From a virus (lineage: Duplodnaviria > Caudoviricetes), in the IMG/VR virus record IMGVR_UViG_3300005937_000010, positions 1-64,000 of that record: DNA of 64,000 nucleotides, one strand, 5' to 3'. Positions 1-39,881 of this stretch are shown piece by piece. The position numbers were made by a program, and so were the translations under genes. The notes below the pieces were generated by a model. The model was not told where the DNA came from and ran no database searches. It saw only the letters and a program-made list of their open reading frames with translations. Position 1 is the stretch's first letter, and each line of letters starts with the position of its first letter.

Positions 1-530
1 CCTGCCAAGACCTGCGGATCGCCCGCTTCGGTGCCAAGCATGGCTCCCAGGCGGGCTACCTCGTCCACGAAACCCGTCATCGCCGCCATGCGCTGACCCT
101 GCGGGACGTTGGAGAACGTGGAGAAGAACCTTGTCATGTATTGCTGAATGTCATTGACGGCGATGCCGACCTTGTTCGACTCCAGAATCGCCTGATCGCC
201 TACATCTGACAAGAAGCCCTGTCCTGGCCCGGTATACCGGCCGGTCTGCTCATTCAGTTCGCCTGCCAAGGATGCAACACGGCCAAGCTGGGTCTGAAAC
301 TCAGCCAGGCGTCCGATGGCCGCAGTCACGCCAAAGACGAACTGGCCTGCCAAGGCATAGCGGGCGGTCGTCCCAATGGCCATGAGTTGCCGTTGGAACA
401 GCCCCATCTCTTTGTTGGTCTGACGGATCTGCCCCTGCGTCCTGCCAAGACCAGCATTGATACGGTTGAGCGCGGCTTCCAGACCACGACTCGATCCGGT
501 GATTTCGACGTTCAGGCGGCGTGTGCTCAC
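1..530 (-). CDS. Tape measure protein, N-terminal part (runs off window)
   Basis: Open frame from GTG 530, overlapping the upstream TGA: MSTRRLNVEITGSSRGLEAALNRINAGLGRTQGQIRQTNKEMGLFQRQLMAIGTTARYALAGQ. It is helical and Ala/Gly/Gln-rich and follows the tail chaperones. Confidence 0.65.
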   Translation of the reverse strand, partial: MSTRRLNVEITGSSRGLEAALNRINAGLGRTQGQIRQTNKEMGLFQRQLMAIGTTARYALAGQFVFGVTAAIGRLAEFQTQLGRVASLAGELNEQTGRYTGPGQGFLSDVGDQAILESNKVGIAVNDIQQYMTRFFSTFSNVPQGQRMAAMTGFVDEVARLGAMLGTEAGDPQVLA

Positions 531-901
531 TTACGGCTCCCTGCTACGTGCTGTGGCTGGCCAGTGTGCTTGGTGAAGAACTCCTCAAAGAAGATGACGC
601 GAGCTTCCTTCTCCTCCTCGCTCATCGACAGTTGGTGCTCAAAGTATTCTCGTGGTCGCTCGATCATCCCCTCCAGCTTTTCTTGGTACTCTGCCAAGAC
701 ATTGACCGGCTCATGGCAGACTTCACAACGAGTCTCCTCTAGCTTGGGGAGGCATCGGATATGGACTCGTCGTTTCCGTTCGTCGATGTCAACGAGTCTG
801 TTGAGCCAGATCCAGACAAGCTGACCGCTAGTAGCTCTGGAGCGAAAATCGAAAGGTAGAGTTTGGTTATCGCCCATCGTCTGCCAGATAGCGCGTTCCA
901 T
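527..901 (-). CDS. Tail assembly chaperone C-terminal extension (gpT-like), probably reached by -1 frameshift
   Basis: Overlaps 739-1335 in the -1 frame, is open from the A7 run at 919-925, and lies just before the tape measure gene. Confidence 0.55.
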   Translation of the reverse strand: MERAIWQTMGDNQTLPFDFRSRATSGQLVWIWLNRLVDIDERKRRVHIRCLPKLEETRCEVCHEPVNVLAEYQEKLEGMIERPREYFEHQLSMSEEEKEARVIFFEEFFTKHTGQPQHVAGSRK

Positions 902-1335
902 TCGATTCGCTCCGAGGCTTTTTTTAGGTCGTCCAACATCTTGTCAGTCAGGCCATCGGCTGTCGGACTCGCGTAGTCCATCAAGAGTGTCAGATGGTCT
1001 GCCAAGTGGTCGATTTCCTCCGGCCCCAGTTCGTCCACCAACGCCTCGATGGAAGGAAAGACCTTCCTTGTCAAGTCATCCGGGTCACGCAGCGAGTGCC
1101 ACACGTCCGAATGCACGACAGCGCGATTGCTCGCCTGGAGTCCGGCCGCGTTGTCGGGAAAGCCGAGGCTGGCCGCGTAGATGACGCCAGCCTGCGTGTC
1201 CCGCTCTGCCAAGGGCACCATCGCCACCCGAATCTCCGGGTGCGCCAGGAGAGCCGGGAACTCCGGTGCCTCCTGGCCAAGCCGCATGCGTGTCATGCGG
1301 TTGGCTTCCTTGATCTGCTCAAAGATGCTTGTCAC
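739..1335 (-). CDS. Tail assembly chaperone (gpG-like)
   Basis: 198 aa, between tube and tape measure, contains the slippery site, Ser/Thr-rich C-terminus. Confidence 0.6.
   Translation of the reverse strand: MTSIFEQIKEANRMTRMRLGQEAPEFPALLAHPEIRVAMVPLAERDTQAGVIYAASLGFPDNAAGLQASNRAVVHSDVWHSLRDPDDLTRKVFPSIEALVDELGPEEIDHLADHLTLLMDYASPTADGLTDKMLDDLKKASERIEWNALSGRRWAITKLYLSIFAPELLAVSLSGSGSTDSLTSTNGNDESISDASPS
919..925 (-). other. Candidate -1 ribosomal slippery site A-AAA-AAA
   Basis: Minus strand reads GAC CTA AAA AAA GCC. A -1 slip gives AGC CTC GGA GCG AAT CGA ATG GAA, in frame with 527-901. An A7 run is rare in this GC-rich genome. Confidence 0.55.
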
Positions 1336-1652
1336 TGTCCCGCCCTTTCAAACTCGTCCCGCGTCTTGAATACCTGCCAACCTTCCGGCACTCCGTAGAA
1401 GACCTTGTGGCAACTCCCGCATGTGGCTGCCAAGACGAAATCAGCCATTGGGCCGGAGCCACGAGAAGCTGACACGTCAGGGTTCAGCATCCCACAGTGA
1501 GGGCAGAACGGAGGCCCGCCCTCGTAGTTGGCCTGGCGTTCCTCATCGGCCATCTCCACGATGCGCTCGTTGGAGGCAGCCAGCCGCTCGTTGCTTTCGG
1601 CCAGTGCCTCCAACGCGCTCATCATTCTCGCTCTTATCTCTGCCTCGCTCAC
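1332..1652 (-). CDS. Hypothetical protein with Zn-ribbon (CPHC...CGSC)
   Basis: Two CxxC pairs; GTGA-type overlap with the downstream gene. Confidence 0.6.
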   Translation of the reverse strand: MSEAEIRARMMSALEALAESNERLAASNERIVEMADEERQANYEGGPPFCPHCGMLNPDVSASRGSGPMADFVLAATCGSCHKVFYGVPEGWQVFKTRDEFERAGQ

Positions 1653-1658
1653 AGCTTG

Positions 1659-2069
1659 TCAGTTCCGCCTGGGCGGGTCGTACCCCGGCACCGAAAAGTC
1701 CGCGTTGAGCGTGACCTGATCCAGTGTCGAGTTGACACGCACATTGTTCCACGCACAGTTCTCGTAGTAGTGCCAACCGTTCGCTCCACGACGGCACGAG
1801 ATGTTGAAGCTCTTGAGTCCGAGCATCCACTCCTCGTCCTCCATTCCCGCGTCCTGCCCCGGCCGAAGCAGCACTGCGCTGAACGAGACGGTGCCTTCGT
1901 CAGCCTTGCGTACGGCGCGGCAGATCGGGCCGTCGTGCCCGAAGCCGCCCATGTAGCGGACTTCCTGGCGGTGCTCCTCGTCCATGGTCTGCGTGGCCGC
2001 GTAGTGGTTGCCCGCGATCACGATGCCAAGGTCAGGTGCGTTCATTGCCTCCAACCAGCCGTTTGCCAT
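1659..2069 (-). CDS. Tail tube protein
   Basis: 136 aa, beta-rich, directly after the sheath gene, with an AGGAGG RBS. Confidence 0.55.
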   Translation of the reverse strand: MANGWLEAMNAPDLGIVIAGNHYAATQTMDEEHRQEVRYMGGFGHDGPICRAVRKADEGTVSFSAVLLRPGQDAGMEDEEWMLGLKSFNISCRRGANGWHYYENCAWNNVRVNSTLDQVTLNADFSVPGYDPPRRN

Positions 2070-2082
2070 TGTTCCTCCTTTC

Positions 2083-3201
2083 CTACGCTGCGATGGTCAG
2101 CGTGCCGCGCAAGTCGATGACTTGGTTGTTGCGGACGATCTGGCCGTAGTAGTCGATAATCATGCGCCGCTGATCGGGAGAGGCCGTGACCGTGACGCCG
2201 TAGCCAAGCTGCCCGTTCGGCATCGTGCGCGGCTCCAGCCAGTCGTTGTGGCCCTTGAGCCACGTCTCCACGAGCTTGCCTGCCAAGGCACGGTTCGTCT
2301 CTGTGTTCCCCCGGCGCAGGAACTTCTCTGTCTCCAGCGCGGAGCGCAGGCCGAGGAAGATCGAGTCGCGGATCAGAAGCGTCTGGAGCGCGTCGTACGT
2401 GGTGTCCGTCGAGAACGTCATGCGCAGATGGGTGATTTCCGCCTGCCCGCCCCGACCCTGCCGCAACGTGGACGCTCCGGCTGCCAAGGCTGTGGCATGA
2501 TCGTTCGTCGGAGTGCCCGCTCCCGACTTGAGCCGAAGCACCGGCATCGAGGATGCGTCCCTCTCGATTCCAAGTGTGCCTGCCAAGGGCAGCGTGTCGA
2601 GGTCGTCGGTGATGTCCGGGTTGCGCGCTACCTCGCACGCCACCCGCGCCGCCGTCCACTTACCGCCGCGCAGCACTCCGTTCGTGTCGTAGTGGCCAGG
2701 GCCGATCAGCACGAAGCGCTTGGACATGATGGCCGTCGCCGCCGCTGTGAGGTTGGCAAGCGTCGTCGGCGTTGCCAAGCCGCCGAAGCCGAACTGCTTG
2801 TTCTGGATTCCCTCGGCGTACTCGCAGGAATCCGCGAGTGCTACCAAGTCGGCCTGTAGCTCCGAATCGGTGAGCCGGACACGGATGTCCGGGTTCTCCT
2901 CCAGGAGCGCCCATGCCGTCTGACGCGCCGGAAGCGTCGGTACCGACCCCTTGGCAGAGGCGACGGCCCACACGCCGTTGATGCCCTGACTCAGAACGTA
3001 CTTGACAAGTCCCGACAGGCTTGAAGCAGGGCCAAAAAGCGTGTCGGCGGCAGTTGAGTCTGTGATGTAGACAGGAATCGCCACAGCCTGCGAACCGGCG
3101 ACATCACCTTGTCCCTCGATCCCGATGACAAGGTACTGATCGAGTTGGAAGACGCCGGTAAGAGTGCTGGTGTCTCGGATTTCCGGGTAAATCTGTGTCA
3201 T
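2083..3201 (-). CDS. Tail sheath protein (compact, 372 aa)
   Basis: Sheath-like C-terminal pattern (LLIRDSIFLGLR...IIDYYGQIVRNNQVIDLRGTLTI), position after the neck genes, GAGGAGG RBS. Confidence 0.7.
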   Translation of the reverse strand: MTQIYPEIRDTSTLTGVFQLDQYLVIGIEGQGDVAGSQAVAIPVYITDSTAADTLFGPASSLSGLVKYVLSQGINGVWAVASAKGSVPTLPARQTAWALLEENPDIRVRLTDSELQADLVALADSCEYAEGIQNKQFGFGGLATPTTLANLTAAATAIMSKRFVLIGPGHYDTNGVLRGGKWTAARVACEVARNPDITDDLDTLPLAGTLGIERDASSMPVLRLKSGAGTPTNDHATALAAGASTLRQGRGGQAEITHLRMTFSTDTTYDALQTLLIRDSIFLGLRSALETEKFLRRGNTETNRALAGKLVETWLKGHNDWLEPRTMPNGQLGYGVTVTASPDQRRMIIDYYGQIVRNNQVIDLRGTLTIAA

Positions 3202-3218
3202 GCCAAGCTACCTCCTCC

Positions 3219-3815
3219 TCACACTTCGGTGTGGTCAACAAGATCGAATCCCTCCGGTACGACCCACGGCTCATCCGGCACAGTCTTACTGAACGCCTCA
3301 AGTACCAAGGTCATGTTCACCGTCCTCCACACGGGCATGTCGCTGATCCGGTCAGTCCAATCACGCCCACCGTCAAAGCCGACGAGCGTGACACCGCCAA
3401 GCTGTTCGTTGAAGTCCAGGCGCGCACCGTTCGATCCGAATATGTCGTGAAGCGCCTGGACAACCTTCATGCGCATCGTCTCGCCACCGGCATCCAACGT
3501 GGCCCAAACACCCACGTCGAAGTTGACAATGCGCCTGTGTGCCTCCTGAACTTGGAACGTGCCTGACAAGTGGCTTGGATCGCTCCATTCGTCCACTCCT
3601 TGTACGCCGAAGGCCCACGCCGGGGAGCTTACATCATCCCGCTCAAAATGGACAAGCACCTTGTCCAGCGGATGCGGCTGGATGATCTGCGCCGGATCGG
3701 GGAACGACATCTGCACCTGGATGACTCCGTTGTTGAGCTTCGACTTGGCATAGTCCTCCAAGCCGCGTGTCAAGCTGACAAGCCAGTCCTCCGGGTCATA
3801 CTGGTAGATCGTCAC
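3219..3815 (-). CDS. Putative tail terminator/completion protein
   Basis: 198 aa just upstream of the sheath gene; coupled GTG start. Confidence 0.5.
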   Translation of the reverse strand: MTIYQYDPEDWLVSLTRGLEDYAKSKLNNGVIQVQMSFPDPAQIIQPHPLDKVLVHFERDDVSSPAWAFGVQGVDEWSDPSHLSGTFQVQEAHRRIVNFDVGVWATLDAGGETMRMKVVQALHDIFGSNGARLDFNEQLGGVTLVGFDGGRDWTDRISDMPVWRTVNMTLVLEAFSKTVPDEPWVVPEGFDLVDHTEV

Positions 3816-8570: not shown

Positions 8571-8823
8571 GTGGCACTATCCAGATCGTGACTTGACGCC
8601 TCGCGTTCGGCGGCGGCGTGTGGATGACTTCCCACCGGATGTCGAACGGCGGCACCGGATCGGTGATGTCGATGGTGACGGTGCCTTGCATGAGCATCAT
8701 CCGCGAGAAGTAGTCGCGGATTTCGGAGTCCAGCGCCGTGCCGGGTGACAAGTCAGAGAACAGTTGCTCGACTTCACGCTCCGGCGTCCAGACACGACGC
8801 AGGGCTTCGATGGGATTCTTCAC
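8557..8823 (-). CDS. Hypothetical protein
   Basis: 88 aa, overlapping start and stop with its neighbours. Confidence 0.55.
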   Translation of the reverse strand: MKNPIEALRRVWTPEREVEQLFSDLSPGTALDSEIRDYFSRMMLMQGTVTIDITDPVPPFDIRWEVIHTPPPNARRQVTIWIVPHGAP

Positions 8824-11531: not shown

Positions 11532-13625
11532 TCATCCCTCCGCGAAGTATGAGACACAGGTGAGCGAAACCCAGTTGCCCGCCGAGACGCCTTGAATCTG
11601 CAAGATGCCGCTACCGTCGAGACGCAGCATGTCAGCGGTGAAAGTGCCGCTCATCGCGCCACCGAAAATCAGCGTACGGCCGCTTGCCGGACGATATCCA
11701 ACAGGCAACGTGGCTATCGTCACGCTAGGCCCACCGGAAGTGATAAGCCCTTGCATCTGCACCATGCCGTTCGCCAGTTTGCGGTACTGCCCCGGCCCAT
11801 ACGGAGCGCTGTAATGTGCCGCACCACCTGTCAGCGTCAAGTTCGTCCAGCCTGTATCCGCTGTGACAAGTCCAGGAATATCGGGAGCCGTGAGTGCCGC
11901 CCATGCTGGCGCTCCGCTAACGCCTTTCAAGAACTGGCCGTTGACAACACTTGGCAGGAGAGGCCAATCCGTCGGTACGGGCGCAGCGCTCGTCGGCCGC
12001 ACGCACATGTACGCCACGTTGTTGTAGATCACGATGTCGCCGTCCGTGTACGGCGTGTTGGCAGGGTAATCGCCGTTGTAGACAAGATCGGCTCCAGCAA
12101 CCTGCCAAGTTCCATCATCACGCAGGAACTTGGTACCGTCTCGCGTCCCTGAGCCTAGAGACGCAGGAAGCACACGCCCAACTGCCTCAAATGTGCCATC
12201 CGTCTTGAGCGCACTGGCACCTGAGCGGTAGAGCGTCGTGTCACGAGTAACGCTACCACTCCCCCACTCCATCGTCCCATTGCCAAGAATCCTGAACCGA
12301 TCAACGGTATCGCTGTTCAGACCACCGGAAAAGATCGCGGCTGTCGGCGTCCCTGTGGGGCGATAGCTGAATATCCCTAGAGCAACAAGGAACCCGTCAT
12401 CCGTCGCAAGAAGATCGGCGGCTGCGCGATACAAGCTTGTGTCCAGTGCCGTGCCAAAGTAGAGCCTGCCGTCAGTCCAGAGCGCGATTTGTTGAGCAGC
12501 GGCCTCCATCGACACAATGCCTCCCTTGGCATAGATAGCATCATCCGTGCCAAGAACGTCGGCTGCACGTCGATATACGTTCGTATCGCCTGCCGAGCCG
12601 AAAATGAGCTTCTGCCCTGCGTTGAGAAGATCGAGAATCAATCCTGATCTTGTCAGCCTGGAAGTAACAGCGGCAGCTTCGTCCGAGTAGAACTGCAAAC
12701 CGTCTAGCCCCGACTGAGTATAAATCTCCCAATCGGAAATCGTGTTACGTGCCAAGGTCGAATACATCGCTATTCCTGCACCGCCTGCTCCAGCACCGAC
12801 TTGATTGACGATGTACGGCCAGTTGGTAGAGCCGCCGACAAGGACGGTCGATCCAGTCACCGGGTCGTTCACTCTGAACCAGGGAGCAACTTCGACCGTC
12901 TGATTGCCTGCGCGATACATGTATACGTCCGGCGCAGTCGCGCCACCCGGCCCCCATTCGTGCCTGCCACTGCCAAGTATGCGGAAGGCAGGCTGCGCAT
13001 CGCCTGCCAAGAGCTTGTTGGTAAGGATGCGCGTGGCCGCGACGATGACACCATCGAGCGGGACGTAGTTCATCGCCGGTAGCTGCGCGGTCGGGACTAG
13101 CCCACTCGCGTCCAGGGATGCGTACCCGTTCACAGCGCCCTTGGCACTGATCGCCTGTTTCTCCGCTGCAAGCTCTGCGATGGCAGCCTGCACGGTCGTC
13201 GCAGCCACGTCACCCGTAGCCGTACTGCTGATCGCGGTCGCCGCATGTGCTCCTGCGGCCTGGCCTGTGTGAGCGTCTAGCTCAGCCTGAGTAGCCACGT
13301 CCGCCGCAACCTTGGCAGCCGTGACTCCTCCGGCCTTGATCTGCAACGAGTCTCCGACGATTTCCAGTGTCACGCCATCGACGTTGACACTGAGCACGTT
13401 CGCAGACACACCGATCCCGTTCCCGGCCACGGAAGCTGCCAAGCCAGGACTGGGAAAAGTACCGCTGAGCACGCCACCGGCTGCATCGCCGTCCATCACC
13501 GCCGAGGCAACATCCGCCTTGGCAGTATCCGACTTGTTGGAGCCGTCAGCGTTGTGAGCGGCGAGCAGCCATGTCTCCAGTTGATCCTTCCACGGCTTGG
13601 TACCCAGTGCAGGAAGGCTTGGCAT
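11532..13625 (-). CDS. Virion fibre protein, 697 aa
   Basis: Gly/Ala-rich shaft, repeated DTxLYRxAADxLxTDD units, and a fibre-type C-terminal domain (DTGWTNLTL...YRKLANGMVQMQGLI). Confidence 0.7.
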   Translation of the reverse strand: MPSLPALGTKPWKDQLETWLLAAHNADGSNKSDTAKADVASAVMDGDAAGGVLSGTFPSPGLAASVAGNGIGVSANVLSVNVDGVTLEIVGDSLQIKAGGVTAAKVAADVATQAELDAHTGQAAGAHAATAISSTATGDVAATTVQAAIAELAAEKQAISAKGAVNGYASLDASGLVPTAQLPAMNYVPLDGVIVAATRILTNKLLAGDAQPAFRILGSGRHEWGPGGATAPDVYMYRAGNQTVEVAPWFRVNDPVTGSTVLVGGSTNWPYIVNQVGAGAGGAGIAMYSTLARNTISDWEIYTQSGLDGLQFYSDEAAAVTSRLTRSGLILDLLNAGQKLIFGSAGDTNVYRRAADVLGTDDAIYAKGGIVSMEAAAQQIALWTDGRLYFGTALDTSLYRAAADLLATDDGFLVALGIFSYRPTGTPTAAIFSGGLNSDTVDRFRILGNGTMEWGSGSVTRDTTLYRSGASALKTDGTFEAVGRVLPASLGSGTRDGTKFLRDDGTWQVAGADLVYNGDYPANTPYTDGDIVIYNNVAYMCVRPTSAAPVPTDWPLLPSVVNGQFLKGVSGAPAWAALTAPDIPGLVTADTGWTNLTLTGGAAHYSAPYGPGQYRKLANGMVQMQGLITSGGPSVTIATLPVGYRPASGRTLIFGGAMSGTFTADMLRLDGSGILQIQGVSAGNWVSLTCVSYFAEG

Positions 13626-25499: not shown

Positions 25500-26385
25500 G
25501 GCGCGATTCTAAGCGCTTCCGAGCCGTCGGGCGCAACTTCCCTGCATCTGAGGCCAGGTGGCCCAAAAGAGAGCACAGAAGGGCATAGGAGAGCCTCAGT
25601 GCCGCTTTGGGCTACCAAGCTGCTGATTTCCCTGCAAATCACCATTTTCAGGCAGCTTGGTACCCCTGAACCGCTTTTCTACCCAAAAACTTGTCACTTT
25701 GAGGCGTTTCCGGGTGGCCAATCCGCCCCCGCGGCCTCCCCCCTTCGGCGTCGTCAAACTTGGCACTTTCCGATAACGGAGGCTAATGCGCTGCCTGCCA
25801 AGCTGCTTATAGGTTGCGCGCGCAAGTATCGTCTTGGCAGGCAACGTCCGAGGCTGGCTGCCCTGCCGTCCTGCCAAGCCGCTCCGGCTGCCCTGCCTGC
25901 CTGCCACACGAGGCCGCTGCGCCCGGTGCGGTGGAGGCAGGACGGCAGGACGGAGGCTGCGCACACGGCTGCGGTGGCACCGTCCTCGTGGTGTCCTGGA
26001 GGCCACCCGTGCGGAGCGGCACTGGCTGCCTCCGTACGCTCCGGCTCGTGCCACGGATGCCACCGCTCCGGAGCGGATGCGGCGTGGCGTCCTGGAGGCA
26101 GCCGCTATCTCCAGGCAGTGCCTCCGTGGTGGAGCCTGCCAGTGCCAAGCGGAGGCCATGGACGGAGCCGCTCCGTGCCTGGCGCTCCACCGTGTGCGGA
26201 TGCCAAGCCGGAGGCCGTCCGCTCGCGCGTACGCGGAGGACGCTGCCTGCCAAGACACGAAAAGTCCGCAAATAGCGGCTTTTTTCTAAGCTCGCGGAGT
26301 GCCTGCCAAGCCGCATCCTGCCTGGAGCCGTCTACTCTGTCCGTGCGGCCACGAGGCCGCACCACCCGAACCGATTGGAGACACC
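25500..26385. promoter_or_regulatory. Divergent intergenic region (candidate control region / genome end)
   Basis: Strand switch point; AT-richer patch at 25620-25790; short direct repeats (GGCTGCCCTGCC x2); hairpin at 26343-26362; many TGCCAAG copies. Confidence 0.5.
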
Positions 26386-29300
26386 ATGTCGCACGAGCCT
26401 TACACCACCACCACGAGCCAGCGCGTCTACGCCAGCATGACGGAGCGCCGCGAGCGGTACGCCAGCCTGGAGCGGCTGCCGTCCACGCCGGACACCACGT
26501 GGAACGTGGCGCGCTGCCAGGACACGCACTGCCACGTCCTCTACGTGTGGCCTCGCGGCCTCGCCAGCCTGGAGGACGGAGCCACGCTCCGGTGCGTCCG
26601 CTGCGGCGCTCCGCTGGCGCGGACTACCCGCGAGGCACGCGGAGCCTGGAGCCTCTACCCGCTGGAGGACTTGGCAGCCGCGTACGGCCGTGCCCTGGAG
26701 CGCCAGGACGCCGCTGCGGCCTCGGACGCGGAGTACCTCGCGGCGCTGGAGGCCAGCGGCACCACGAGCGCGGACGGACTGGCGTACGCCAGGCAACTGC
26801 GGACGGAGACTCGCGCCACGATGCGCAAGCCGCTGGAGGCCAAGCTCCGCAAGCTCCGCAAGGCAATGGCTGCGGAGGCTGCCAAGCTCGCGGAGGCCGC
26901 TGCCGTCCGCGAGGCCGTGGACGCGGAGACGGACGCGGAGTACGTGGCCATGGCCTCCACGATGCGGCTGCCGCAGCCGGAGGCCACGGAGCCGGAGCAC
27001 CACACGGACGCGGAGCCTGCCACGCCAGCGCAAGCCGTTCTACTGGCTGCCCTGGAGGCTGGCACTGCCAAGCTCGTGCCGTCCACGGAGGCCGTGGAGG
27101 CTGCGAAGGCTGCCGCTGCGGAGACGGCTGCCAAGCTCCGCGCGGAGCACGAGGCCGCGAGGACGGAGCGCGTCCACGCCTCGGATGCCTACCGCGCGTC
27201 CAGGACGCCGGAGGACGATGCCAAGACACTGGAGCGCGTCCAGGCTGCGGACTACGCGCTGCGGCAGACACGCGCTGCCCTGGAGGCCGCTGGCGTCCTG
27301 CCGCAGCCGCGCGTCCACACGTACGCCAGCACGTCCGAGGCGTACAACCGCAGCCAGTGCGACGATGCCGTACAGGACGGAGACGTGCTCCGCGTGCCGT
27401 CCGAGGACGCTGCGGCCGTCATGGTGTCCGCGTGGCCAACCGCTGCCACGGAGGCCACCGCTGGCGAGGCTTTCCACGTGCTCGCGGATGGCGAGGACTG
27501 GAGCGCGCTGCCTGCCGTCCTGGACGGAGGCCGCACGGACTACGCGGAGTCCGCTGCCGTCATGGCTGCGGAGCTTGCGGAGGACGCCACGCTGCGGACG
27601 CTGGCTGCGGACTTGGCAGCCAAGCCGCTGGAGGCCAGCGCGCTCGTGGCTCCGGAGGACGTGCCTACGCTGGCTGCCAAGCTCGTGCCTGGCGTGCTCG
27701 TGGAGCACGTGGAGTCCGGAGCGCGTGGCACGGTGGCAGGCACGCCAGCGCCGCAGCGGAGCGCTGGCAATGCGCTCTATGTCCGCGTCCGCTGGCAGCA
27801 CGAGTATGCGCGCGAGGCTGGCGCGCTCGTGGCCATCCGGAGGCTCCGCATCGTGGAGGACGGCTCCAGCACTGCCAAGCTCGTGGAGCCGCAGCCGGAG
27901 GCTCCGCAGCCGGAGGCCGTAGAGTCCGTCCGCGTCTACGCGGAGGCTGCGGAGCGCCGCGAGGCACGCGCGGCCGTCTACGGCACGGAGGCCACGGAGG
28001 ACGTGCTGCCGCTCGCGCATGCCATGGCTGCGGCGTGGAGCCATGCTGGAGGCCAGCCGGAGGACATGCCATCGGACGCCGGAGCCGTGCTCCGCGCGCT
28101 GGACGCGCGCATGCTGGAGACGGCTGGACGGCTGCGGTACGCGCGCATGGCCACCGCTCGCGGAAACTTGGCAGCGTCCATGGACGCGCTGGAGGCCGCT
28201 CTAGCCTCCGCTCGCGCGTCCGAGGCTGGCAGCCTGGACGAGTCCTCGGAGGCCGTCACGGAGCCGCACACGGCCTCGGAGGCCATGCCAGCGCCAGGCT
28301 TGTCCGGACTTGGCTGGACGGAGCTTGCGGACGGAGACGAGGACGCGGAGCGCTGCCGTGGCTGCGGCTGCCGCGCGGACTGGCACGATGCCATGGACGG
28401 AGCGTGTCCGGAGGACACGGAGGCTCCGCATCCGTACAGCATGGCAGCGGATGCCCTGGAGGACGAGGACACGCCGGAGGCCGTGGAGACTGCCAAGCTC
28501 CACGCGCTGGCAGCCGCAGCCGTGGAGGCCACGGACTGGAGCATGTCCGCGCTGGAGGACGTGTCCGCGCTCGTGCTGGACTACCGCGAGGCCACCGCTG
28601 CCGCGTACGGAGCGGATGCGCGCGAGGCTGCCAAGCGGACGCGCGAGGCCATCCGGCACGCGCTGGCAGACATGGACGGAGCCACGTACGCGCTCGTGCC
28701 GGACGCCACGCTGCGGCTGGCTGGCATGCCCTACGTGGAGCGCCAGTGCTCCGGCACGGAGGACGGCTGGCTGTACTACGTGCTCCAGGACGCGGAGCGC
28801 GTGGAGGACGCCGGAGGCTGGACGGACGCGGAGCCTGCCTGGCTGGAGGCTGCGGACTTGGCACGGCTGGCCATGCTGGACGATGCGGAGCGCCACGCGG
28901 TGGACGCGCTGCGCAGTGCCATGCAAGGCAGCGCGGAGGACGCATACGGCCTCGCCATCCTCGTGCTGGAGCCGTCCGGCTGGCACGTCCTGGAGTACCG
29001 CGAGGCCACGGCCTCGGACGGCTGGACGCCGGAGCGGATGCGCACGAGCGCACTCGTGGAATACGCGGAGCACGCTGCCAAGCTCGTGGACGTGGACGGC
29101 CTCGTGTGGACGCTGGCAGGCTCCGAGGACGTGCCAGCGCGCTCCGCTGCCCTGGCCACCGTGGACGCGCTGGAGGCCACCGCTGCCAAGCTCGCGGACT
29201 GCGAGGCCGTGTGCCAGCGGCTCCGCGTGGAGCTTGCGGACATGGCCAGCCGGACGCTGCCGGACTTCCGGAGCGCGGACGGCTCCGCGCTCGTGTGCCT

Positions 29301-29532
29301 GCCTGGCGCAGTGCTGCCGGACGGCCGTGGCTCCGTGGTGGTGGCTGCCAGCGCGTCCAGCGCGCACGTATGGCACGTCCTGGCCATGCGTCCAGGCTGG
29401 CACGCTGCGGACACGTACTACGTGGCCACGTACGCGCGGCCGTCCTCGTGTGACACGCCGCAGCGCACGGCTTGGCATGACACGCTCGCGGCTGCGCTGG
29501 CAGACTACGCCAGCCGGACGGAGGCCGTCTAA
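26386..29532 (+). CDS. Large Ala/Glu-rich multidomain early protein (1048 aa)
   Basis: CCCGAACC...GGAG leader before ATG 26386; consistent codon usage; TAATG coupling to the next gene. Contains Cys clusters and an STSEAYNRSQCDDAVQDGDVLRV...AWPTA...FH domain. Confidence 0.75.
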   Translation: MSHEPYTTTTSQRVYASMTERRERYASLERLPSTPDTTWNVARCQDTHCHVLYVWPRGLASLEDGATLRCVRCGAPLARTTREARGAWSLYPLEDLAAAYGRALERQDAAAASDAEYLAALEASGTTSADGLAYARQLRTETRATMRKPLEAKLRKLRKAMAAEAAKLAEAAAVREAVDAETDAEYVAMASTMRLPQPEATEPEHHTDAEPATPAQAVLLAALEAGTAKLVPSTEAVEAAKAAAAETAAKLRAEHEAARTERVHASDAYRASRTPEDDAKTLERVQAADYALRQTRAALEAAGVLPQPRVHTYASTSEAYNRSQCDDAVQDGDVLRVPSEDAAAVMVSAWPTAATEATAGEAFHVLADGEDWSALPAVLDGGRTDYAESAAVMAAELAEDATLRTLAADLAAKPLEASALVAPEDVPTLAAKLVPGVLVEHVESGARGTVAGTPAPQRSAGNALYVRVRWQHEYAREAGALVAIRRLRIVEDGSSTAKLVEPQPEAPQPEAVESVRVYAEAAERREARAAVYGTEATEDVLPLAHAMAAAWSHAGGQPEDMPSDAGAVLRALDARMLETAGRLRYARMATARGNLAASMDALEAALASARASEAGSLDESSEAVTEPHTASEAMPAPGLSGLGWTELADGDEDAERCRGCGCRADWHDAMDGACPEDTEAPHPYSMAADALEDEDTPEAVETAKLHALAAAAVEATDWSMSALEDVSALVLDYREATAAAYGADAREAAKRTREAIRHALADMDGATYALVPDATLRLAGMPYVERQCSGTEDGWLYYVLQDAERVEDAGGWTDAEPAWLEAADLARLAMLDDAERHAVDALRSAMQGSAEDAYGLAILVLEPSGWHVLEYREATASDGWTPERMRTSALVEYAEHAAKLVDVDGLVWTLAGSEDVPARSAALATVDALEATAAKLADCEAVCQRLRVELADMASRTLPDFRSADGSALVCLPGAVLPDGRGSVVVAASASSAHVWHVLAMRPGWHAADTYYVATYARPSSCDTPQRTAWHDTLAAALADYASRTEAV

Positions 29533-29684
29533 TGGCTGCCCTGGCTTGCGGCTTCGCTGCCGCTGCCATGGCCATGGCGTGCCTGGCCGCGAGCATGGAC
29601 GCCACGAGCCAGCTAGTGGCGCTCGTGCTGGCCATGCTCTACCTGGCGTGCTCCGTGCTCGCAGCCTGGAGCACGCGGCACTAG
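29532..29684 (+). CDS. 50-aa hydrophobic membrane peptide
   Basis: MAALACGFAAAAMAMACLAASMDATSQLVALVLAMLYLACSVLAAWSTRH; TAATG coupling. Confidence 0.5.
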   Translation: MAALACGFAAAAMAMACLAASMDATSQLVALVLAMLYLACSVLAAWSTRH

Positions 29685-30098
29685 CTGCCAAGCTCCGCGC
29701 GCAAGCTCGCGCGCTCCACGCTCTACCTGGACGGCCTCCACGCGGAGGCCGTCCGTGCGTCCGAGGCCGTGTGCGGCCTCGTGTGCCGCTGCCAAGCTCT
29801 AGGCAAGGCAAGCGGCCAGGCTCGTGCTGGCGTGGCCGCACGGAGCCAGCCACGGCCTCGCAGCGGCATGCCAGCCGGACGGCCTCCACCGTGCTGCGGC
29901 CTCCGGCGTCCAGGACGGCCGCAAGCTCGCGGACGCCGGACGCGCTGTAAGGCTCCAGGACGGCCGCTCGCGCGAGGCCATGCCAGGGCATGCCTGGCAG
30001 CCTCGGAGGCCGCGAGACGGCCGCACACGGCCTCGCAGCGGCGTGCTCGTGCCCTGGACGCTGGCACGTCCTGGCACGCGGCCTCGTGTCAAATAGAT

Positions 30099-30122
30099 GG
30101 ACGGCCGCTCGCGCGGCCGTCC
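30099..30122. terminator. Hairpin at the convergence of plus- and minus-strand genes
   Basis: GGACGGCCGC-TCGC-GCGGCCGTCC, a 10-bp stem with a GNRA loop on the minus strand. Confidence 0.55.
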
Positions 30123-30150
30123 AGGTAGTGCGTCTATGTCCGGCTGCGGA

Positions 30151-31104
30151 CTACAGCCGGAGGCCGTACGGCCGCAGTACCTCGCGGATGGCCTCCGCGA
30201 GCTTGTCTGCCTCCAGGTACGTGCCGTCCGTGTCCTGGCTGCGGAGCATGGTGCGGATGGCTCCGATGGCCTCCGCGTATCCGTAGCCACGGACGGCCTC
30301 GCACCACGAGGCCAGCGCGTCAAGCTCGCGGCGTGCTGCCTGGCGCTCCGCGAGCGGTAGCCTGGAGCGCGCTGCCGGATAGCCAGGCTTGGCATTGTTT
30401 CGGATGCGCTCCGGCACGTCCAGCGCGCGGCGCTCCAGCCGTGCGCTCCAGGCTGCGGATTCGGACACGTAGCCAGTGCTGGCCAGCGCGTACAGCGTGG
30501 AGTCCTGGCCACCATGCCAAGCCGCTGCGGAGGCCATAGCGTCCGCTGGCGTATAGACGTGGCTGGAGCACACTACCTCGCCTCCGTCCAGGCATAGCCA
30601 GCCGTCCGCGTAGACGGCAGCGCCGCACACGTCGCACGAGCTTGGCATGCCGTCCTCCGGCTCCGATACAAGCTCCGTCCAGTGCGCTCCGCTGCCATCC
30701 GTGCCGGACTTGCGGCCGTAGCCTCCGTCCATGTCCACGAGGTAAACGTCTACGCGCTGGCGCTCGTGCTCGCGGACTGCCTGGAATGCGTCCACGAGCC
30801 TGGAGTCTAGTGCCAAGCTCCAGTGCTCGCACCATGTCTCCAGCACGTCCGGAGCGCCACCGTGGAGCTTGCCTCCGTCCGCACGAGTGAATAGGACGGA
30901 CGCCACATGCTCGCGCAGCGCGTCCTCCACGTACTGGAGGCCGTCCGTAGTCAAGTCCTCATCTAGCAGGACGCCACATTCGTCGCAGTGTGATGGCGAG
31001 TCCGTCTCGCCTCCGATGGTAGGACTGGCGTCCTCCGGAGCGCAGTCCTCGCACCATAGGCAGGCAGCCTCCGGAGCGTAGTACGGAGTCCGTGCGTCCA
31101 TCAC
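30151..31104 (-). CDS. Early hypothetical multidomain protein
   Basis: CxxC...ETDSPSHCDECG...LTTDGLQYV module plus an AAAWHGGQDSTLYALASTG module; GGAGG RBS. Confidence 0.7.
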   Translation of the reverse strand: MMDARTPYYAPEAACLWCEDCAPEDASPTIGGETDSPSHCDECGVLLDEDLTTDGLQYVEDALREHVASVLFTRADGGKLHGGAPDVLETWCEHWSLALDSRLVDAFQAVREHERQRVDVYLVDMDGGYGRKSGTDGSGAHWTELVSEPEDGMPSSCDVCGAAVYADGWLCLDGGEVVCSSHVYTPADAMASAAAWHGGQDSTLYALASTGYVSESAAWSARLERRALDVPERIRNNAKPGYPAARSRLPLAERQAARRELDALASWCEAVRGYGYAEAIGAIRTMLRSQDTDGTYLEADKLAEAIREVLRPYGLRL

Positions 31105-32048
31105 GCTACCTCCGTCCGCACGAGCTTGGCACGAGCGGCCACGGCCTCGGACACTGCCTCGGACACGAGTCCGTAGTCTGACACGATGGCGTCTAGCTGG
31201 CGCTCCACGGACTCCGCACGGCTGGACGTGTCAAGCTCGCAGCCTCCGATAGAGGACGTGCCAAGCTCCACGCCAGCCGCGTACGCGGTGGCCACCACGT
31301 AGACGGCCTCGCGGCCGTGGATGGCAGTCCGCAAGTCCGCAGCCACGTACTGCCGCGCGAGGCAGTCTGCCTCGTGCCTGGCGTAGCCAAGCTTGCGGAG
31401 GCCAGCCACGTGCTCGCGGTACGGCATGTCCGGCACAAAGTAGGCATACGTGCCACGCTCGCGCGGCTCCGGCAGTGCCACCGCATCCGGCGTCCAGCCG
31501 TTTTGAAACTTGCCACGAGTCCAGTAGTCCGGATCGTAGTCCGCACGAGCCACCACGGAGACGGAGTAGCCACGCTCCACGAGCTTGGCAGTCCAGCCGT
31601 AGCCGTCCTCCGTCCAGTCCAGTGCCGGAGCCGGAGCCTGGCTGGCGTAGTGCCAAGCCGTGGACGCCGGATACCGCTCGTGCTCCGTGCGAAGCTTGCG
31701 GTACCGCTCGCGGCGTGCCTCGTGCTCCGCAGCCTTGCGCTCCAACCGCAGCCGCTTGCGCTCCGCGCGCTGCCAAGCCTGGACTTGTGCCAGCGTCCAC
31801 GCGGACGGCTCCAGCACGAGGCTGCCAGAATCGTCCAGCCGGACGCTGCCGATTGCCTCGCCACCGTAGCCAGCACTGCCGCGCGTGGCCACGAGCCGGA
31901 CGGCATCGCTGCCGTCCGCGTCCACGTGTGCCGTGGCCTCCGTGCCTACGTGCCAGCCACGGACGTGGCAGGTTACTCCGCTCCAGGCAGTACCGCAGCG
32001 CGTGGCCTCGCCACGGCTGCCCTGGAGACTGCCGTAAAAGTGTGACAT
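31101..32048 (-). CDS. Early hypothetical protein
   Basis: N-terminal SHFYGSLQGSRGEATRCGT...RGWHVG module resembles small phage early proteins; GGAGG RBS. Confidence 0.7.
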   Translation of the reverse strand: MSHFYGSLQGSRGEATRCGTAWSGVTCHVRGWHVGTEATAHVDADGSDAVRLVATRGSAGYGGEAIGSVRLDDSGSLVLEPSAWTLAQVQAWQRAERKRLRLERKAAEHEARRERYRKLRTEHERYPASTAWHYASQAPAPALDWTEDGYGWTAKLVERGYSVSVVARADYDPDYWTRGKFQNGWTPDAVALPEPRERGTYAYFVPDMPYREHVAGLRKLGYARHEADCLARQYVAADLRTAIHGREAVYVVATAYAAGVELGTSSIGGCELDTSSRAESVERQLDAIVSDYGLVSEAVSEAVAARAKLVRTEVA

Positions 32049-32228
32049 GTCCTCTACCTCCAGTCCTTTTCAAGTCTTGGCATGGAGCCAGCCGGACGCC
32101 GGATAGGCTCCGTGCTGGCGTCAAGCTCGCGGCCGTGGCGTACGTGGAGCGCCACGCTCGTGCGTGCTGGCTTGGCAGCCAGCGCCGCGCGTAGTGCGTC
32201 CTCGCGCGTGGCGTAGACGGCAGCCACG

Positions 32229-32432
32229 CTAGACACGGACGGACTCCGGCAGCACGATGGCTCGTGCTGCCTCCGCTGCCGCGTAGAGCTTGGCAGCCAT
32301 CGGACTCGTGGTGTCCTCGGACGCGCGCAGCGTGTCCTCCACGAGCCATACAGTGCGGAGCCGTCCAGTCCGGACGGACTCCACGCGCTGGCGCTCCGTG
32401 GCGCTGGCGCTGGACTTGCGATTACTTGGCAT
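32229..32432 (-). CDS. Small hypothetical protein (MPSNRKSSAS...)
   Basis: CCCGAACC-TACGGAGG leader before ATG 32432. Confidence 0.5.
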   Translation of the reverse strand: MPSNRKSSASATERQRVESVRTGRLRTVWLVEDTLRASEDTTSPMAAKLYAAAEAARAIVLPESVRV

Positions 32433-32891
32433 GTCTGCCTCCGTAGGTTCGGGTGGAGCCTCGCAAGCCGCGAGGCACTGCCAAGATAGCACACGGCTGC
32501 GGCTGTCTGCCAAGTCCTCGCGCGAGGCTGCCTGCCAAGCTCGTGCTACGCTCGCAGCCTTGCCAGCTAGACGGAGGTAGACATGCCAGGACGGTAGTCC
32601 GCTGGACATAGACGGAGCACGCCACACGAGCACGGCCGCGAGGCCGTGCGGCTTGGCATGCTCGCGGACTGCCTGGCGCGCTGGCGTGCCTGGCTGCCTC
32701 CGGCTGCCTCCAGGACGGCCGCTCCGGCGTGCCTCCAGGACGGAGGACGGACGGCCGCTCCGAGGACGTGGAGCGGCCGTCCAGCGCCGCGCGCTCCGAG
32801 GACGTGGAGCGCCGCAGCGGCGTGCTCGCGGCTGCCATGCCACGAGCCGCGAGCGGTAGCCAGCCTACCAAGTTAGTGGCCACTAACATGT

Positions 32892-32917
32892 GACAAGCCG
32901 CCCGAAGGCGGCTTGTC
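32892..32917 (-). terminator. Hairpin with C(UUCG)G tetraloop
   Basis: GACAAGCCGCC-TTCG-GGCGGCTTGTC, 11-bp stem, downstream of 32952-33197. Confidence 0.65.
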
Positions 32918-32951
32918 CTGGCACGGCGACATCGGTCAAACTTGCCTGGCA

Positions 32952-33197
32952 TCACACGGCTGCCAAGCTTGGCTCGTACGCGGCATCGAACATGTTTGGC
33001 ACGTCCAGGACGGCGAACGGATGCCGGAAGCATTCCAGCGCTCCGGCGCGCGTCGTGGCGTAGAGCGTGTGGATGAGGACTCCGTGCCAGTCCAGGACGT
33101 GGACTTCGTAGCCATCGTCCACGCCACCCATGTAGAGCACCACGCTGCCGCCGTTGCCAGGGATCGTCCTCGCGTCTACCTCGATTCTCTGTGTCAT
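32952..33197 (-). CDS. Early hypothetical protein
   Basis: A-rich leader, CCCGAACCGAACC and GGAGG RBS; ends with FRHPFA. Confidence 0.7.
   Translation of the reverse strand: MTQRIEVDARTIPGNGGSVVLYMGGVDDGYEVHVLDWHGVLIHTLYATTRAGALECFRHPFAVLDVPNMFDAAYEPSLAAV

Positions 33198-39387: not shown

Positions 39388-39881
<494 letters not shown>

Follow-up and report, generated by a model that had tools for sequence, protein, structure and literature searches.

A 7-kb segment purged of short words in the genome of an uncultured soil phage: a possible T5-like leading segment

Avoidance of restriction sites, chiefly palindromes, throughout the genome is a familiar property of phages. For T5-like and T7-like phages it is already established that restriction succeeds or fails according to the sites present in the DNA that enters first. 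In T5 and BF23 the first-step-transfer region, some 8-10% of the genome, is located at a DNA end; restriction-modification (R-M) of Types I, II and III, CRISPR and Ssp succeed only on sites within this region, and many sites are present in the remaining genome (PMC10644984; bioRxiv 10.1101/866236). In Autographiviridae (Murciavirus) facing the Type I R-M system Mme2I, only motifs in the first-entering DNA were found in 2025 to decide sensitivity, and the first-injected region of this family is variable and carries anti-defence genes (PMC12455610). Here we describe a segment, referred to below as the island, in an uncultured phage from a rhizosphere metagenome. The sequence studied is positions 1 to 64,000 of the 72,088-bp virus record IMGVR_UViG_3300005937_000010, and some 25 short words are nearly or wholly absent from the island, in genes and spacers alike.

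25815..32870, no strand: purged island of 7,056 bp with 72% G+C (GC), making up 9.8% of the unique genome (71,965 bp)

A segment with missing words

The borders of the island, at 25,815 and 32,870, are sharp to a few bases, and GC is 72% between them versus 61% elsewhere. The island contains 1,596 distinct 6-mers, against 2,961-3,296 in other 7-kb pieces. When word counts were compared with those in 203 other windows of 7,056 bp, the lowest count elsewhere for any purged word was 7 to >30 times the island count. GATC occurs once in the island (minimum elsewhere 35), TCGA not at all (23), TGCA once (7), GGG+CCC 18 times (128), GACC+GGTC not at all (31), CGAC+GTCG four times (75), CCGCC+GGCGG not at all (16) and TGA+TCA 19 times (144). 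In the bulk of the genome there are 493 copies of GATC and 334 of TCGA. The GGG/CCC triplets that survive in the island are mainly found within TGCCCTG. Many of the missing words are typical restriction-enzyme targets.

An initial annotation, made from the sequence alone, had described the region as nearly devoid of GATC, TCGA, GGG and GACC/GGTC. Our counts agree with it: between 25,800 and 33,100 there is one GATC (31,532), against 16 in 1-3,000, and one TCGA, which at 32,986 lies beyond the TCGA-free span that had been put at 25,800 to about 32,980, against 18 in 1-3,000; two GGG were counted on the plus strand between 26,400 and 32,900, where about two had been given. As it also stated, Gly is mostly encoded by GGC (68%) and GGA (28%; GGG 0%) and Glu almost only by GAG (98%), and CCGG, GGCC, GCGC and TGCCAAG remain abundant. 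Its remark that stop triplets are scarce holds for TGA (1.1 per kb) and TAA (0.7 per kb) but not for TAG (6.8 per kb). The missing words extend beyond its list to TGCA, CGAC/GTCG, CCGCC/GGCGG, TGA/TCA, CTGA/TCAG and others, and a Markov analysis found AGGAG/CTCCT, CAGCT/AGCTG, AGCAG/CTGCT and several 6-mers to be depleted as well. The observation is confirmed and is stronger than first described.

The purge is not explained by codon usage or protein composition, the latter being an explanation that the initial annotation had itself raised. It survives shuffles in which synonymous codons were permuted inside each island gene, so that the protein and the gene's own codon usage were kept. For the island genes these shuffles expect 37 GGG (1 observed), 67 CCC (9), 22 TCGA (0), 46 CGAC (3), 34 GGCGG (0), 21 CCGCC (0), 16 GGTC (0), 12 GACC (0), 13 TGCA (1) and 8 GATC (1). 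Since the shuffles exceed the observed counts, codon choice depends on the adjoining codon in such a way that the words are avoided. Every word is depleted to the same degree as its reverse complement, which indicates a constraint on double-stranded DNA and not on the messenger. Under the same null the purge discriminates between 4-bp palindromes: three of the 12 testable ones (GATC, TCGA, TGCA) are removed and nine are not purged, eight of these being at expectation (ACGT, AGCT, CATG, CCGG, CGCG, GCGC, GGCC and GTAC). The 1,475 bp of spacers in the island follow the same rule, with two GGG (33-65 expected), no GACC+GGTC (13-19 expected) and one TGA+TCA (21-25 expected). The genes and spacers concerned are the following.

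25815..26385, no strand: non-coding island DNA 5' of gene A, rich in inverted repeats, obeying the purge and ending in a hairpin, a CCCGAAC leader and a ribosome-binding site
26386..29532, plus strand: gene A, 1,048 amino acids, with zinc-ribbon-like Cys motifs, an Ala/Glu-rich middle and a modular C-terminal part
29532..29684, plus strand: gene B, 50 amino acids, hydrophobic; its start overlaps the stop of A
29685..30150, no strand: convergent intergenic spacer with an 11-bp-stem hairpin at 30,098-30,123, obeying the purge
30151..31101, minus strand: gene C, 316 amino acids, with zinc-ribbon motifs, 57% identical to its counterpart in the relative L023 and of no known family
31101..32048, minus strand: gene D, 315 amino acids, N-terminus matching phrog_5927; eight homologues were aligned
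32054..32236, minus strand: small gene E2, about 60 amino acids, GTG start
32229..32432, minus strand: small gene E1, 67 amino acids, preceded by a hairpin, a CCCGAAC leader and a GGAGG ribosome-binding site

The purge has pushed Ile, Phe and Asn under 1% in the island proteins. They contain 0.7% Ile, 0.4% Phe, 0.4% Asn and 1.6% Lys, compared with 4.8, 3.0, 3.1 and 4.5% in the bulk, and the protein of gene A contains 0.4% Ile, 0.2% Phe and 0.4% Asn. P0006, a member of the D family, has a normal Ile/Phe/Asn content and carries Ile, Met, Asn and Phe where D of the island carries Val, Leu, Asp, Ser or Tyr. Of the 16 lysines in protein A, ten have their codons inside the motif TGCCAAG. The case shows how far selection at the DNA level can reach, to the near loss of three amino acids and to a DNA motif that dictates most lysines of one protein. 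The gain in GC is +12 points at codon position 1, +10 at position 2 and +6 at position 3, and a larger gain at positions 1 and 2 is the opposite of plain mutational drift.

Expression tuning is one alternative account. The island may be written in host-like, high-GC spelling for immediate expression and for escape from AT-seeking silencers (of the H-NS, MvaT or Lsr2 type) and from stray promoters and terminators, with the missing words as a by-product. The rise from 61% to 72% GC, its conservation in relatives, AA, TT and AT steps that are 2-5 times rarer than elsewhere and the lack of a sigma-70-like site in 8 kb all fit, and the loss of A+T-rich words is accounted for. The same account fails for the lost G+C-rich words (GGG/CCC, CCGCC, GACC, GTCG, CGGG), for the removal of three of 12 palindromes while GCGC, GGCC, CCGG and CGCG stay at expectation, and for the depletion at codon junctions beyond codon usage; the gain in GC at third positions is, moreover, below those at first and second positions. 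We consider it improbable.

A second layer of avoidance is found outside the island. There, 22 restriction-type words are missing, 6-bp palindromes for the most part: ACCGGT, ACGCGT, AGGCCT, ATCGAT, CACGTG, CCCGGG, CCGCGG, CGATCG, CTCGAG, CTGCAG, GACGTC, GAGCTC, GCCGGC, GGCGCC, GTCGAC, TCCGGA, TCGCGA and TGATCA, and the list also holds AATT, GGACC/GGTCC and two asymmetric 6-mers. AATT is observed 0 times where 54 are expected, GGACC/GGTCC 0 (97), CGATCG 0 (109), GCCGGC 4 (114), TGATCA 0 (60) and ATCGAT 2 (94). There are no or nearly no sites for SacI, SacII, SalI, StuI, NarI, NruI, MluI, PstI, XhoI, SmaI, AatII and AgeI. Ten of the 6-mers purged from the bulk are testable in the island, and eight of them are absent there too (about 48 copies expected in total, 0 observed), and the bulk bans kept by the island include CCGCGG, GCCGGC, AGGCCT, GAGCTC and ACGCGT. 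No DNA methylase or base-modification gene was detected in the genome. By these word counts, restriction-type selection weighs heavily on the lineage.

The missing words of the island might instead be targets of the phage's own early nuclease, encoded by or accompanying the island, with the rest of the genome arriving or replicating after this enzyme has been shut off. Davison proposed such self-avoidance for A1 and the first-step DNA of T5 (bioRxiv 10.1101/866236), and here the purge is symmetric and word-specific and the island proteins are orphans without an assigned function. On the other hand, the searches revealed no nuclease fold or family for A (C-terminal part) or D, nor a family for C, a list of about 25 different words is far longer than a single enzyme could account for, and the bulk, with its hundreds of copies of the same words (GATC 493, TCGA 334), would need protection anyway. 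The genome-wide loss of classical R-M sites points to host enzymes. Self-avoidance is in our view an unlikely explanation.

Comparison with relatives bears on whether the purge is recent, and on whether it needs selection at all. A syntenic block is present in relatives at 43-74% protein identity. The relative L023, a 70.8-kb contig, has the same gene order, with D 47%, C 57% and the C-terminal part of A 45% identical, and at the same place it has a block of 7.3 kb, with 70-73% GC between flanks of 60-63%, that is purged of GATC, TCGA, TGCA, CCGCC, CGAC and GGGG/GGGA/TGGG. These words are absent from every island that was analysed word by word. The closer relative L027 has a missing-word list that matches that of the studied phage; parts of the island were found in L027, L028 and L029, and the more distant L028 and L029 are partially purged. 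AGGAG/CTCCT, CAGCT/AGCTG, GCCGA, CCACT and CGGG are banned here and in L027 and occur at expectation in L023. The initial annotation had suggested looking for depletion of the same words in relatives, and such depletion is seen for the shared core in L023 and L027 but not for AGGAG, CAGCT, GCCGA, CCACT and CGGG, which are specific to this lineage. A shared core with lineage-specific additions is what changing repertoires of host nucleases would produce, and a physical property of the DNA or a fixed mutation bias would not yield a word list that varies between lineages.

A local, context-dependent mutation process that erodes words without selection, for example in a single-stranded or differently repaired stretch near the end, would suit the sharp edges and the probable location of the block at a DNA end. 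We regard it as very improbable, because the word lists vary by lineage while the block persists, palindromes are hit selectively, TGCCAAG is kept at 40 copies with ten of the 16 Lys codons of A inside the motif, and the proteins are still conserved and open. Recent acquisition from a donor of different composition, which the initial annotation had named as a possible way out, has the 11-point GC jump at sharp borders in its favour, but it is already contradicted and hardly worth entertaining. The relatives keep the same block in the same place at the protein identities given above. The block also shares with its genome TGCCAAG, the CCCGAAC leaders (that of A and E1 also precedes other non-structural genes) and the bans on CCGCGG, GCCGGC, AGGCCT, GAGCTC and ACGCGT, and no match to it was found in collections of phage and bacterial genomes.

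Position in the packaged DNA and order of entry

The ends of the DNA were assessed on assembled contigs from two runs that hold the phage, and the following elements at the two edges of the island are concerned.

25725..25775, minus strand: G-run-rich non-coding element, conserved with L023, just outside the inner (left) edge
32824..32854, no strand: unique 9-bp inverted repeat GCTCGCGGC / GCCGCGAGC with a 13-nt spacer; the arms are conserved in L023, the spacer is not
32872..32887, no strand: unique 16-bp palindrome GTTAGTGGCCACTAAC, just beyond the outer edge, conserved in L023
32892..32917, minus strand: terminator-like hairpin after the last bulk gene (32,952-33,197); it contains CCC/GGG and so lies outside the purge

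An independent assembly (Logan) of the source run consists of two contigs, with junctions at 39,487-39,514 and 32,834-32,836. The first of these is a (TCGTCC)n repeat. The second has no repeat and falls inside the 13-nt spacer of the 9-bp inverted repeat at the outer edge of the island. The arms are shared with L023, and so are the 16-bp palindrome that lies 20 bp farther outward and the sequence past it. A single chance gap in coverage somewhere in 72 kb would not be improbable; a gap exactly at 32,834-32,836 would be. The contig break at the outer edge is a hint of a physical genome end and, together with the lambda-type terminase, it suggests that 32,834-32,836 could be a cos-like cutting site. 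The inner edge falls in an 890-bp gene-free, repeat-rich stretch (25,500-26,385), and the conserved element at 25725..25775 may serve as a border or stop signal, or may itself be the cos. Either cos candidate, 32,835 or the G-run element, would make the island terminal. Should entry begin with the end at 32,835, its direction would be that of nearly all genes, as in T7.

We lean, if only slightly, towards the view that the island is a T5-like leading (pre-early) segment kept free of host nuclease targets. The island would lie at one end of the packaged DNA, as the contig break and the cos candidates suggest, and would have to be read by the machinery of the host at a time when the phage has no counter-defence yet. 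Selection would then remove the short words recognised by the DNA-cutting defences of the hosts, on both strands and in coding and non-coding DNA, at the cost of the normal amino-acid make-up of the island proteins. Words that are cheap to remove (6-bp palindromes, GGWCC) would have gone from the whole genome, and words too short to be cleared from 65 kb (GATC, TCGA, TGCA, GACC, GTCG and those of the GGG type) would be removed only where one cut is fatal. The remaining genome would be protected later, by island products or by delayed entry as in T5. That the island enters first, that its products protect, and which nucleases it evades are parts of this reading that we infer. The GGG/CCC ban does not correspond to a normal restriction site and may be the sum of several longer sites or may reflect another reader of DNA.

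A more specific version, which we hold to be rather unlikely, is that a two-step entry has evolved independently in this lineage: the block would enter alone and stop at the G-rich border at about 25.75 kb, the orphan proteins A, C, D, E1 and E2 would act as a new broad-spectrum system that shields the other 65 kb, with its hundreds of GATC, TCGA and similar sites, from restriction, and the word lists of the lineages would be a record of the nucleases they have met.

The initial annotation had interpreted the region as the first-ejected end of the genome, purged of host target sites until phage proteins protect the rest, and had taken the missing words as a record of the host's defence specificities. 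This interpretation is supported in part. The purging part of this interpretation gains from a depletion that survives shuffles, reaches non-coding DNA, is strand-symmetric, word-specific and conserved, and is accompanied by restriction-type avoidance in the bulk. As to the first-ejected end, the coincidence of edge and assembly break hints at a physical end; first entry, protection by island products and a word list that mirrors the host's specificities are the hypothetical part.

Several observations weigh against a leading segment. The contigs of relatives continue unbroken over the site homologous to 32,834-32,836. If cos is at 32,835 and packaging follows the lambda rule, beginning at the terminase-proximal end, the island would go first into the capsid and come out of it last. 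The order of entry is the main uncertainty of this reading. A three-letter GGG/CCC ban together with about 25 or more words is more than the known restriction systems of a single host would account for. No island protein resembling known anti-restriction or anti-defence proteins was found in family and structure searches. The two layers of avoidance are also not simply nested: TCCGGA is purged from the bulk (5 observed, 35 expected) yet has 12 copies in the island, CACGTG (1 observed, 31 expected in the bulk) has five, and this reversal is not predicted by a simple nested model. For TCCGGA the reversed pattern, purged in the bulk and present in the island, is also seen in L023. Both words are built from preferred triplets of the island (TCC, GGA, CAC, GTG) and may be tolerated leftovers.

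If a leading segment is what the island represents, the first-acting part of an uncultured phage genome could be marked from the sequence alone, since host-nuclease targets are missing from it. A handful of orphan proteins would then be candidates for new counter-defence functions, and for phages without a known host the missing words would provide host nuclease specificities that can be put to the test.

Genes and elements of the island and its genome

The only plus-strand genes within the island are A and B (26,386-29,684). No function was obtained for A, C or D from Pfam, PHROGs, PADLOC, PDB sequence searches, ESM Atlas, Foldseek (PDB, BFVD) or VIA-align, the VIA-align matches spanning only a single long helix. 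Pfam gave no significant match for the island proteins, two weak matches of A being far below the cut-offs, and the only PHROGs matches in the island were to two families of unknown function, both for D. The structural model of the C-terminal part of A (predicted local distance difference test, pLDDT, 85, confident) and that of D (pLDDT 73, moderate) have no significant structural neighbour and no known fold. Residues 1-63 of D (31860-32048, phrog_5927) are 39-49% identical to small hypothetical proteins of the mycobacteriophages Acadian, Donny, UnionJack and Theia, where the counterparts are encoded toward the right genome end. These matches are a hint of a possible actinobacterial host range for the family. 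L023/L024 and L027 likewise have two small genes upstream of D. The long minus-strand frame at 25,596-26,258 was rejected as a gene; its counterpart in L023 is similar only weakly, and over the conserved DNA element near the end of the frame.

The regions upstream of A (26360-26385) and E1 (32433-32460) are laid out alike, with a -10-like hexamer, a GC hairpin, CCCGAAC, a ribosome-binding site and ATG. A sigma-70 consensus scan found no match anywhere in the island (8 kb scanned), and one promoter candidate was noticed by eye only:

32479..32491, minus strand: candidate extended -10 promoter TGCTATCTT, overlapping CTTGGCA, which would drive E1-E2-D-C

The position of TGCTATCTT is conserved in L027, L029 and L023. 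An Rfam match to the small RNA CcsR1 at 32751-32816 (minus strand) scores 26 bits against a cut-off of 65 and is probably due to chance; it overlaps both copies of a 20-bp repeat, CGCTCCGAGGACGTGGAGCG, at 32,756 and 32,792. Exact copies of the palindrome GTTAGTGGCCACTAAC occur in more than 170 other viral and metagenome contigs with GC of 30-75% (52 viral contigs and, among the matches listed, at least 80 metagenome contigs, with at least 120 stretches), where it is often arrayed with GTTAGT-N4-ACTAAC variants in gene-free regions. As a mark of genome ends it was rejected, because it lies within 300 bp of an end in two of 32 whole contigs, as by chance. The contig breaks of relatives after gene C' were likewise rejected as DNA ends. 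In L023 one 24-nt terminator hairpin sequence occurs at both 8733-8757 and 11905-11929, and this double use accounts for the contigs of two other samples that stop directly behind gene C'.

The record has a 123-bp repeat at both ends and was on this account assembled as a circle; the repeat sits away from the island, which is single-copy in the 72-kb record. The genome encodes a large terminase of the lambda gpA type, Pol III alpha, RecA, DnaB, a primase, a baseplate J protein and lysis enzymes. About 105 genes were called over the whole genome with a simple codon-score caller, nearly all on the minus strand. The terminase is only 24% identical to those of the nearest cultured phages. No prophage relative of it was found among 185,579 bacterial genomes, and no nucleotide match to the island or to the neighbouring structural genes among 50,697 phage records. 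The relatives found by terminase are too short to reach the island, and their contigs end within genes and not at the conserved border element that is the alternative cos candidate. Relatives of D and A were sought by pattern among viral contigs, and the D alignment was searched among metagenome contigs, without a match; loci reached via a neighbouring DUF932 gene were set aside as belonging to unrelated phages without the TGCCAAG motif or the island. The heptamer TGCCAAG/CTTGGCA has 345 copies in the 72 kb, 40 of them in the island, and in the sense strand of the island genes TGCCAAG is observed 18 times where 2 are expected. In gene A it is always in one frame, encoding Ala-Lys (for example at 26878-26884 and 27069-27075), and it is also frequent in the relatives L007, L008, L012, L023, L027 and L028. 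The tandem hexamer (TCGTCC)n at 39487-39514 is intragenic, and its minus-strand product is an acidic run of Asp/Glu.

Comparison with known systems

Among models with an experimental basis the first-step-transfer region of T5 and BF23 is the closest. The island resembles it in taking up about 8-10% of the genome, in being made of two oppositely oriented units of mostly orphan proteins and in having a long, repeat-rich, gene-free border. It is likewise free of nuclease sites that are frequent in the remaining genome, GATC occurring once against 493 times. Unlike in T5, there is no terminal repeat of about 10 kb that contains the island and no homologue of A1, A2 or dmp in it, the terminase belongs to the lambda type, and in other respects the phage has no relationship to T5. 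With about 25 words down to three letters and a reshaping of the proteins, the purge is also far broader than in T5, and a two-step entry is here a conjecture. As in T7, nearly all genes of the studied phage point one way, but an Ocr-like gene or a phage RNA-polymerase gene, as in T7-like phages, was not found. The case of Murciavirus and Mme2I concerns a single Type I motif and the island a whole vocabulary. With genome-wide avoidance in other phages the bulk shares its lack of 22 restriction-type words, mostly 6-bp palindromes; the island adds to this a second, local layer of words of 3-5 letters that are not banned from the bulk. What is new is the lineage, an uncultured family of high-GC soil phages with a lambda-type terminase, the breadth of about 25 words, the cost to the proteins and the presence of two layers of bans in one genome. 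The gain is one of breadth and of a new lineage, and the principle is the one already described in T5-like and T7-like phages.

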